Source of the DNA: Lingula anatina | Taxonomy: Eukaryota > Animalia > Brachiopoda | DNA length: 64,000 bases | Direction of reading: 5' to 3' | Assembly (NCBI GenBank): GCA_051362555.1 | Contig: CM120642.1 | Coordinates: forward strand, 10,912,001 to 10,976,000 | In this document: piece after piece, positions 57,701-60,700 of the stretch | Position numbering within the stretch: the first letter of the stretch is position 1 | How the letters are laid out: each line of letters starts with the position of its first letter | Position numbers and translations under genes: made by a program | Notes under the pieces: generated by a model | Seen by the model: only the letters and a program-made list of their open reading frames with translations | What the model was told of the DNA's origin: nothing | Databases searched by the model: none

Positions 57701-60700
57701 CCAAACCATATTACGTATTACATCTACAACCACTGTGCTATCTGGCCTGATGACAAGTACGTAGAAACGAGAGTGAAATGTTGATCTTAAAGAGACAAAC
57801 TGTAAGAAGAATAACTTCTGCGTAAAATGATTCCTCTAGGCAAAGATCAGCAGATTTACTTTTTGTGCACACAAAGTCAGGTCATTGTTCTGTTTCAGTG
57901 AACATTGACTTGGTAGCCTGTGCCACATAAACCCTCTCCAAACCATTTTGTACTCTCTGCTTAGTGAGAATATGGAATTACACAAAGAGGGACATGTTTT
58001 GTTTGTCATTCTTACTACAGAAAATGATTTTGTATATGCAATTTGCTTTCTCGTCTGTCAGGCCTGTAGTTAATAAAACATTTATTAGACATCTTATATG
58101 CCAAAGAAGTAGACTAGTTTCATTTTTATCTTTAGGTCAAAATGGCCAGCTGGGTTCAGGGCAAATGGGCACCTGCTGCTGAACTCTGAAAAGGTACAAA
58201 CCATACTTTAATTTCAACTTTTTATTGGAAGAAAAGAGTTTCATACTCACCTTCAAAGTTATGTCTTTTGAAAATTCTGTTTTGATGGTTAAATTTGGTA
58301 AAAGCTTTAATATTAGATTGTACACTTATTTGTAAAAAAGATAAAAATGTTAAGTTTAATTTGCTATTGATGCAAGTGGTTGTATTACAGATGTCCAAAT
58401 CTACAGGGAATTTCTTGACACTAATGCAGGCAATAGGCAAATTCTCTGCCGATGGTATGCATACAGATAATGGAGAAATCACATAACATGTACTCCATGC
58501 ATTACTGTTTGGCAATTTGATCTTTGGTTTCTGAGAGCAAAATATATATGGTATATTTGTATGATATCTGAAGGCAAAAGAAGTTTGGCATGGTATGCAA
58601 TAAAATAAAGCTTTGAAATGAAAAATATTTATTACAATGGAGAACAGGAACCAAAGTGCCAACAGTGAGAAAGCTGGTCATTGACAAATAGTAATGCTGT
58701 GGTTAAGGTGGCTGGATGGAGCATGAAACAGGAAGGGATTCTTATGTTGAGGAACCAGTATTTTAATACCAGCATATATACCAAAGATCAACTACTTTAG
58801 GTTAGAACTACAGTGAAATATCCTTAAGAAAGTTTTGTTGATAAAATGAATATCCATGTTGAACTTACTTAAACCAGTTGGACTTAACACTATTCAATCA
58901 AGTCCAATTTTGAAGATCTTATTGTTTTTTGCTTACTTATCATTACAAATAAATTGTGAAGATGGTGCTAAAACCCAGTTGATCTTTGGGCATGGCTGTT
59001 CTTGGTGACTCTACATAGGTAGCTTATTAGTAATCAGTGTCGTAATGGAATATTCTGTGTCCAATTTTTTCTAGATGTCAAAACAAACTGGCAACTTTTT
59101 GACATTGTATGATGCCATTGCAAAATTCTCAGCAGATGGTAAGGGGTTGCGTGGTTTGATGCACTGGCTTTTTTCCTAACAATTTGTGAAAATGGAGGGC
59201 CATTTGATTGACATATTTCTCTGACTAGGATAGTTCTTTGTTTCCATTTAATAATTTGTGTTTGTTTGATCACAGACTTTTGTTATAAACTTTATCAGTG
59301 TGAGGAAGCCAACATTACTGTGTTCTAGACCCAGAATTGTCCAATTTTCAGTTGTCGTAATATACCTGTCAGTCTGTTGCTTTTCATGTTTTGATAAGCA
59401 TAGAATTCACAAATATAAACCACTAACCTTGTTGTCATATTAGTCAAGATTGTTTGTCACAAAGGAAAATTTGTGTTGTTTTATTTTCCTATATGCTTGA
59501 GTCAAATTTTGGTTTGTTGTCTTGGGTGTTCACTGCTTTGTTACAGCTAGGACATGTTTTTATTTCTTTCACTACAAACCTAGACTCCATCAATTGGAAT
59601 CTATTTTATGCATAGTTGTAAAACACTGTTTTCCAAAAGTTCATGATGCTCTTTCAATGATTATTTTTGAGTAGTATGCTTGATTAACTTATGATTGGTC
59701 TTCCAGCATTTTGGAAGTGTTTTAAGTTTACATTCACATCAGCAAATAATCTTGGTATACATTTGAATTAAATGGAATCTTAGTTTAAAATATTTAGGTA
59801 TTTGCATGGCATAAAATAACAGTTTAATTTTTAGTCCTTCACTTCATATAACTGTTGTTGCTTCTGTTAATGCCAACTGTTTTTAAACAACTGTCCTGAA
59901 ATGTTACAAAGGTCATATGATGCAAACAGATGTAACGGTCAATGATGATGAGCAGATGTTATTATTTTAATTTATTTATTTTTTGAGATATTTTGACTAA
60001 ATGTTTGCCTTGGATTCCTGTCCTAGGTATGCGCTTGGCTCTGGCAGATGCTGGCGACACCCTTGAAGATGCAAACTTCGTTGAAGCAATGGCGGATGCA
60101 GGTCTGCTGCGCCTGTACACGTTCTTGGAGTGGGTGAAAGAGATGTTGTCCACTGCTGACAAGATGAGAACAGGACCTATGGATAGTTTTAATGACAAGG
60201 CTTTTATCAAGTAAGTCTCTTTGTCCAAGTTGCTGTAATTATTCCAGCCAAATCATATGTACGGGTAGGGTTTCATCAAATATAAACAAAGTTAACTGGT
60301 TATGTTACTTGAACGGATTGTGCACAACTGAACAATAAAAAAAGGATGCAAACATTTTGAAAAGGAAAGATGTGTTTAAATCAGAAATGCTCTATTGATT
60401 TGGAACAAGGTTTTAAATCGGATCATGAAATGATCAAGAAAATGAAGTTTTGCATGAAATTTGTGACTGATAACAGTATGATTAGGAATTTACTAGTTCA
60501 AAAGTTGAAATAGCCAGGTTTTTTTGAAGATGTATTAAGAAATAGGATTGAATTGATTTTTCCAGTGAGATGAACAGTGCCATTTTGCTGACAGAGCAGA
60601 ACTATGAGAAGATGTTGTTTAAGGAGGTGGTGAAGTCTGGATTCTTTGAATACCAGGTGTGTTTCAGACAAGTTGACATTATTTTGAATTAAAAATTTTT

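Follow-up and report, generated by a model that had tools for sequence, protein, structure and literature searches.

The cytosolic leucyl-tRNA synthetase (LeuRS) gene of the brachiopod Lingula anatina raises the question of why one gene should hold two interchangeable versions of the exon that encodes the KMSKS signature loop of the enzyme. The gene lies in the 64,000-nucleotide (nt) stretch analysed here (contig CM120642.1, positions 10,912,001 to 10,976,000), which we call the window and to whose numbering all coordinates refer. We found that the gene puts either exon A, which gives KMSKS, or exon B, which gives KMSKQ, into the protein. We have hardly any doubt that the exon pair exists, that it is expressed and that its use varies between samples. 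What the choice achieves can be answered only tentatively: by picking exon B, splicing would place Gln at residue 725 and likely produce a working enzyme that could not be turned off at this site by a ULK1-type starvation kinase.

The gene runs on the forward strand from about position 48727 (start approximate) to 64000, as located by tblastn with the annotated protein P0001 and by PDB and Pfam matches, and it continues past the end of the window, which cuts it near residue 1108 of 1182. In the PDB search, human LARS1 was a full-length match to the Lingula protein (E=0, residues 4-1180), with the HIGH-type motif HLGH identical and KMSK(S/Q) aligned between the two. The Pfam families tRNA-synt_1, Anticodon_1 (PF08264), RBD_LARS1 (PF24810) and ULD_3 (PF22947) scored above cut-off, and the anticodon-binding, RagD-binding and C-terminal ubiquitin-like domains are thus all present. 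A single-gene tree placed the protein within protostome invertebrates, with no finer placement. Judged by these matches, the gene is a cytosolic LeuRS and the LARS1 orthologue, and each isoform is predicted to charge tRNA-Leu. A 264-aa C-terminal LeuRS fragment on a second scaffold (P0123) clusters with the LeuRS proteins of the window and is probably an assembly haplotype duplicate.

Both exons stand, on the forward strand, between the same constitutive neighbours. The 58-nt upstream exon (58136..58193), whose last residue is the first Lys of KMSK(S/Q), provides the common donor, and the downstream exon (60027..60210) provides the common acceptor for exon A (58391..58454) and exon B (59075..59138). 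An initial annotation, made from the sequence alone, had proposed a mutually exclusive pair at these positions, and its coordinates, splice sites and translations proved correct: each exon is 64 nt long, sits between an AG and a GT, and is read in the same phase. Our codon comparison also agrees with its counts, since 17 of the 21 residues (43 of the 64 nucleotides) are identical and the codons divide into 7 identical, 10 synonymous, all within those 17 residues, and 4 non-synonymous. A simple site count over the 21 codons gave pS 0.93, which is saturated, against pN 0.17; by this measure the duplication is old and purifying selection on both copies is supported, as had been suggested. No alignable homology was found among the flanking introns (197, 620 and 888 nt), and the three variants that RNA reads carry inside exons A and B, one of them in exon B, are all synonymous. 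Adjacent, homologous, equal in length and phase and flanked by intact splice sites, the two exons belong to the class of tandem duplicated mutually exclusive exons. An assembly artefact or two alleles are excluded by silent-site saturation, by the unrelated introns and by reads joining each exon to the same neighbours, and a pseudo-exon B is excluded by splicing on both sides, by its open frame and by the synonymous nature of the sole variant seen.

The two products differ little. Public annotation already contains both of them as 1182-aa proteins from one contig, P0001 with exon A and P0122 with exon B, and they differ only at S725Q, M733Y, Q734D and G737A. The search of overlapping 24-residue pieces of LeuRS residues 1-1128 by tblastn revealed no second duplicated coding exon in the window.

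Next to the annotated proteins, RNA reads show that the one gene makes two LeuRS isoforms, as the initial annotation had inferred. We examined eight of the nine RNA-seq runs available for the species (X1-X8, leaving out X9, with coded metadata; 6-26% of each run; junction listing threshold 3 reads per run). Both exons were joined to the shared neighbours on either side, and all four predicted junctions occurred in the reads. In the order upstream to A, A to downstream, upstream to B and B to downstream, the junction reads were 22/12/0/1 in X1, 40/16/1/1 in X3, 3/7/0/0 in X7 and 0/2/5/4 in X4; for the remaining runs the two exon A junctions had 6/1 reads in X5, 2/2 in X6, 26/17 in X2 and 7/9 in X8, with the exon B joints below the listing threshold. 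Exon A, with 106 upstream and 66 downstream junction reads over the eight runs, is the major form and prevails in most of them, while exon B, with 6 upstream and 6 downstream junction reads listed, is the minor form and dominates in X4 (9 junction reads against 2). Counted as distinct read starts at the upstream joint, the ratio of B to A was 5:0 in X4 against 1:43 in X1, X3 and X7 together (Fisher p=3e-6). Read depth points to a share for exon B of 0.70 in X4, 0.26 in X5, 0.06 in X3, 0.04 in X1 and 0 in X2, X7 and X8; the value for X6, 0.68, is raised by unspliced reads. No joint from A to B and none skipping both exons was listed in any of the eight runs at this threshold, although decay would hide such forms. 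The junction count that the initial annotation had proposed as a check thus found both exons used, exclusive and variable between runs, and neither of them free of reads. X4 had few LeuRS reads, 32 among 9.5 million records, compared with 150 among 12.4 million for X1. X6 has unspliced reads in both introns around exon B (58891-59104 and 59319-59746), including a 6-base insertion allele at 59577.

What, then, does the swap change in the enzyme? The initial annotation held that the isoforms differ only at the active-site loop. Its four substitutions are right, but only S>Q lies in the KMSKS loop, and the others follow 8-12 residues downstream. M733Y, Q734D and G737A occupy the three columns of the exon that vary most among 248 LeuRS proteins, and across the same set exon B retains both motif Lys residues and every invariant column. 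Residue 725 is aligned to human Ser720, the fifth and last residue of KMSKS (PMC7229842); it is Ser in isoform A (codon TCT, 58400..58402) and Gln in isoform B (codon CAA, 59084..59086, forward strand like the former), where a phosphorylatable Ser is replaced. In a Neisseria LeuRS with ATP and leucinol, the gamma-phosphate is reported to hydrogen-bond the side-chain O-gamma and the backbone N of S638, which is the fifth KMSKS residue (PMC9424281). In human cells, glucose starvation is reported to cause ULK1 to phosphorylate LARS1 at S720, by which leucine binding is blocked and mTORC1 suppressed (PMC9133088; reviewed in PMC10318010 and PMC9166799); this phosphorylation requires prior O-GlcNAc at S1042 (PMC9133088), and a separate mass-spectrometry study describes pSer720 only under amino-acid starvation (PMC13439101). 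Charging of tRNA is lowered as well when this Ser is phosphorylated in starved human cells. The initial annotation had treated the loop as intact, and both Lys are indeed kept, but it missed that the swapped fifth residue is an ATP contact and the ULK1 site S720. The sole conserved residue changed by the swap therefore coincides with an ATP ligand position and a human starvation phospho-site, and because of this alignment exon B would remove a known regulatory hydroxyl.

Ser is the rule at this position, though other residues are found. Among 400 LeuRS proteins with the motif, the fifth residue is Ser in 374, Gln in 18 (many of them oyster duplicates) and Asn, Ala, His or Gly in 8; that Gln occurs there in database LeuRS of other animals was beyond what the initial annotation could see. 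At the codon level, Ser to Gln takes at least two base changes. A residue other than Ser tends to be accompanied by Asp nine residues later, which was found in 8 of 12 such distinct exon peptides against 39 of 181 otherwise, a comparison uncorrected for kinship. In the Pacific-oyster cluster (P0009), near-identical LeuRS proteins carry Ser (P0379, P0383) or Gln (P0371, P0372), a two-base difference that may reflect allelic variation or an exon pair missing from the annotation.

When metagenome contigs were scanned with a DNA pattern, at least 119 LeuRS loci came up, 43 of which have introns on both sides of the exon and were scanned with a profile; the other 76 were screened by motif search only, and more pairs may exist. 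The profile scan detected an intact second copy in 1 of the 23 fully spanned loci (L036), and a second copy in 2 of the 20 partly spanned ones, intact in L096 and decayed in L078. L036, which holds an almost entire LeuRS gene from a spiralian-like animal, has its Gln exon at 3863-3926 and its Ser exon at 4003-4066 on the forward strand, 76 nt apart; in L096 the Gln exon (384-447) precedes the Ser exon (269-332) on the reverse strand by 51 nt. Both pairs, seen in DNA only, have intact AG/GT sites and the reverse order of the window. The Gln exon of L036 also lacks the first Ser of the motif, with Ala in its place (KMAKQ). All three intact pairs seen (window, L036 and L096) thus consist of one Ser and one Gln exon, and all three Gln exons have Asp nine residues after the fifth motif position. 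The extra copy in L078 (1847-1911, reverse strand, 65 nt) keeps AG/GT and contains a frameshift and a stop; with 56 of 65 columns identical to its neighbour, it is, to judge from the alignment, a recent and decayed duplicate. Such a 65-nt copy is a decayed copy or a poison exon. The initial annotation had proposed to look in relatives for copies damaged by stops: the L036 and L096 pairs are intact, in reverse order and probably from a separate duplication, and the L078 copy is damaged.

On the origin of the pairs, an exon-only tree grouped the Gln exons of L036 and L096 (69) and likewise their Ser exons (62), apart from the copies of the window. The simplest reading, with weak tree support, is that L036 and L096 share one duplication and that the pair of the window goes back to another. 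A single ancient duplication for all three pairs was not supported, given the reversed order and the weak exon tree. L036 and L078 group with annelids, a nemertean and molluscs (support 0.958), and L096 is too short to place. No such isoform pair was present among the 263 proteins of other species searched, and the isoforms compared from Mytilus, Lineus and Nematostella have their differences at other places; a Gln-specific DNA pattern had no match in prokaryote genomes and viral contigs.

We therefore consider escape from phosphorylation at residue 725 the best single explanation, ahead of the others discussed below, while holding it as tentative. We hypothesize that the human-type S720 switch operates in Lingula too, so that under energy stress the cells using exon B would continue leucine charging. 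Since two base changes are needed, a Ser/Gln pair arising twice would be unlikely as drift if the duplications were independent, and selection on this residue would then be indicated. A broader proposal, doubtful as a whole, is that several invertebrate lineages independently duplicated the KMSKS exon and turned one Ser to Gln, so that exon choice would set for each cell type whether charging and mTORC1 obey the AMPK-ULK1 brake. If it is true, the Ser720 switch, known only from human cells, would be an ancient animal control point.

Several observations weigh against this explanation. Gln occupies the position in RefSeq LeuRS of two Magallana/Crassostrea oysters, Ascaris and Gnathostoma, and Asn, His, Gly and Ala occur there across Ruditapes, Mercenaria, one Haliotis copy and Rotaria, so that Ser is dispensable in whole lineages. 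The position of human S1042 is Thr1046 in Lingula, and it is Asp, Glu or Ile in six other well-aligned lophotrochozoan proteins (a poorly aligned rotifer was left out); since the hydroxyl residue of the priming site is absent in those six, the S720 pathway may not be conserved. The junction support for exon B is thin, with 12 reads, 9 of which come from one run, and all three runs in which exon B is raised stem from a single study, where condition is confounded with genotype and library type. Finally, L078 shows that this exon can duplicate without being retained.

The strongest rival, which we regard as rather unlikely and which takes up the idea of the initial annotation, is kinetic tuning without any phospho-switch, in which Ser to Gln would alter Km(ATP), kcat or fidelity and provide an isoenzyme for another energy state, temperature or tissue. 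It is compatible with escape from phosphorylation. The bond between the fifth KMSKS Ser and the ATP gamma-phosphate in Neisseria LeuRS (PMC9424281) speaks for it, although that contact is known from a bacterial-type LeuRS. The association between a non-Ser residue and the downstream Asp, with kinship uncorrected, hints at a co-adapted loop, and all three Gln exons fit it. On the other hand, oysters and Ascaris have Gln in the LeuRS that is annotated as their main one, so any kinetic effect is probably modest.

A slightly less probable alternative is near-neutral redundancy, by which the two enzymes would be equivalent, Gln tolerated, and each copy kept undamaged only because it is used somewhere. 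Residues other than Ser in 26 of the 400 proteins, the coexistence of Ser and Gln within the Pacific-oyster cluster, the decay of the recent L078 duplicate and the presence of one copy in 22 of the 23 fully spanned animal loci (many of them close relatives of each other) are all in line with it. However, the three intact pairs are all Ser plus Gln, the change requires two substitutions, the pair of the window has persisted to synonymous saturation, and exon usage switches strongly between runs.

It is improbable that exon B gives a weak or dead enzyme that lowers charging, or a signalling-only form like the human splice variant LSV3. For this idea, splicing of a nearby catalytic-domain exon of human LARS is reported to give a catalytic null that still signals (PMC8941210), and X4, where exon B dominates, has few LeuRS reads; however, exon B keeps both Lys and all invariant columns, and KMSKQ is the motif of annotated oyster and Ascaris LeuRS, so that a Gln enzyme can probably work as a LeuRS. 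Least probable is that exon B shields LeuRS from a naturally occurring inhibitor, an adenylate mimic supplied by food or symbionts. Altered signature motifs protect some bacterial synthetases in this way, antibiotic hyper-resistance is reported to result from an altered class I signature motif (PMC10485003), and the swapped residue lines the ATP site, but no inhibitor or ecological link was found.

As to how the choice may be kept exclusive, the initial annotation had pointed out that including both exons or neither shifts the frame, because 64 is not a multiple of three, and test joins of this kind met a stop at residue 52 or 55, while either exon alone stayed open. Frameshift followed by decay is a described mechanism of exclusivity that fits a 64-nt pair (PMC6071210), and nonsense-mediated decay of frameshifted forms may enforce it here. 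Competing base pairing in the intron between the two exons possibly helps: a candidate element D (58780..58793) is complementary to both S1 (58517..58528) and S2 (58977..58989), all on the forward strand, and could pair with one or the other but not both, with D-S2 as the predicted default. An 11-mer present twice with its complement once occurred in 0 of 2000 shuffles of the 620-nt intron, in 11 of 1000 shuffles of the 1833-nt span and, among real tiles of the window, in 0 of 103 and 0 of 34, for a pattern that was picked after it had been seen. S1, D and S2 all lie between exons A and B, so neither pairing loops out an exon, and no comparable complementary triple was listed for L036 or L096; the competing pairing is a lead only. 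Beside S1, an 18-nt pair with 89% complementarity (58499-58516 and 58680-58697) has a predicted pairing probability of about 0.09. Steric exclusion is inapplicable in the window, where 620 nt of intron separate the exons, but the short spacing in L096 (51 nt) and L036 (76 nt) would allow it.

The surroundings can be described briefly. A constitutive 216-nt exon of the LeuRS gene (57541..57756, forward strand) probably corresponds, judging from its length and from where it lies, to human exon 20 (213 nt), the exon skipped in LSV3. Pfam matches indicate an Spt20 SEP domain (about 420-670) and an RNase PH exosome subunit (about 37100-37600) on the reverse strand, RNA polymerase I A49 on the forward strand (about 44600-45200), and a CS-domain protein on the reverse strand (about 48000-48270), head to head with LeuRS. 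A long forward-strand gene at about 4700-33000 presumably resembles OTUD4/ALG13, and two pieces of it that were tested gave no Pfam match.

Mutually exclusive exons that stem from tandem duplication are an established arrangement. Both LeuRS isoforms are already in automated annotation, which the initial annotation, aware of no description of the pair, could not see. No LeuRS case of exclusive exons was found in the literature searched (subscription journals, bioRxiv supplements and invertebrate exon catalogues lay outside the search). LARS is missing from the exclusive-exon supplement table of PMC8373072, where control genes are present, and from 10 supplement files of PMC5740500, in which no control gene was checked; matches to 'KMSKQ' came from two unrelated papers. 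The closest structural likeness is with human PKM, ATE1 and ACSL6 (table of PMC8373072), in which, as in Lingula LeuRS, homologous exons of equal length lie between common neighbours and few residues change. The Lingula swap differs from these in affecting the signature motif of a class I synthetase and in using exons whose length cannot be divided by three. The use of an exclusive exon to escape an inhibitory kinase also has a parallel: the alpha2 exon of MEF2D, alternative to alpha1, escapes inhibitory phosphorylation by PKA, although MEF2D is a transcription factor and the swap there does not concern the active site of a housekeeping enzyme. For MEF2C, the literature confirms mutually exclusive alpha exons. 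With the docking-site and selector RNAs of Dscam, 14-3-3zeta and Mhc (PMC6071210), the candidate S1/D/S2 arrangement shares one element complementary to two mutually exclusive partners; it differs in that all its elements lie in the A-B intron and no exon is looped out.

As for regulation, the human ULK1-LARS1 control (PMC9133088, PMC13439101) acts on the same residue and motif as Lingula S725, and the RagD-binding domain is present in Lingula. The human control is post-translational and reversible, whereas in Lingula splicing removes the site itself and phospho-regulation is putative. Among LeuRS splice forms, the nearest precedent is human LSV3, a tissue-restricted variant that likewise arises from alternative splicing in the catalytic domain; it leaves out a 213-nt exon and has no catalytic activity, whereas Lingula substitutes a homologous exon and keeps the catalytic Lys (PMC8941210). 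The splice variants of tRNA synthetases are reported mostly to disrupt the catalytic domain (PMC8941210), whereas here two apparently intact versions of a class I signature loop are exchanged by splicing. Two natural isoforms with four differing residues thus offer a ready test of the ULK1-LARS1 brake outside mammals and of the role of the fifth KMSKS residue.
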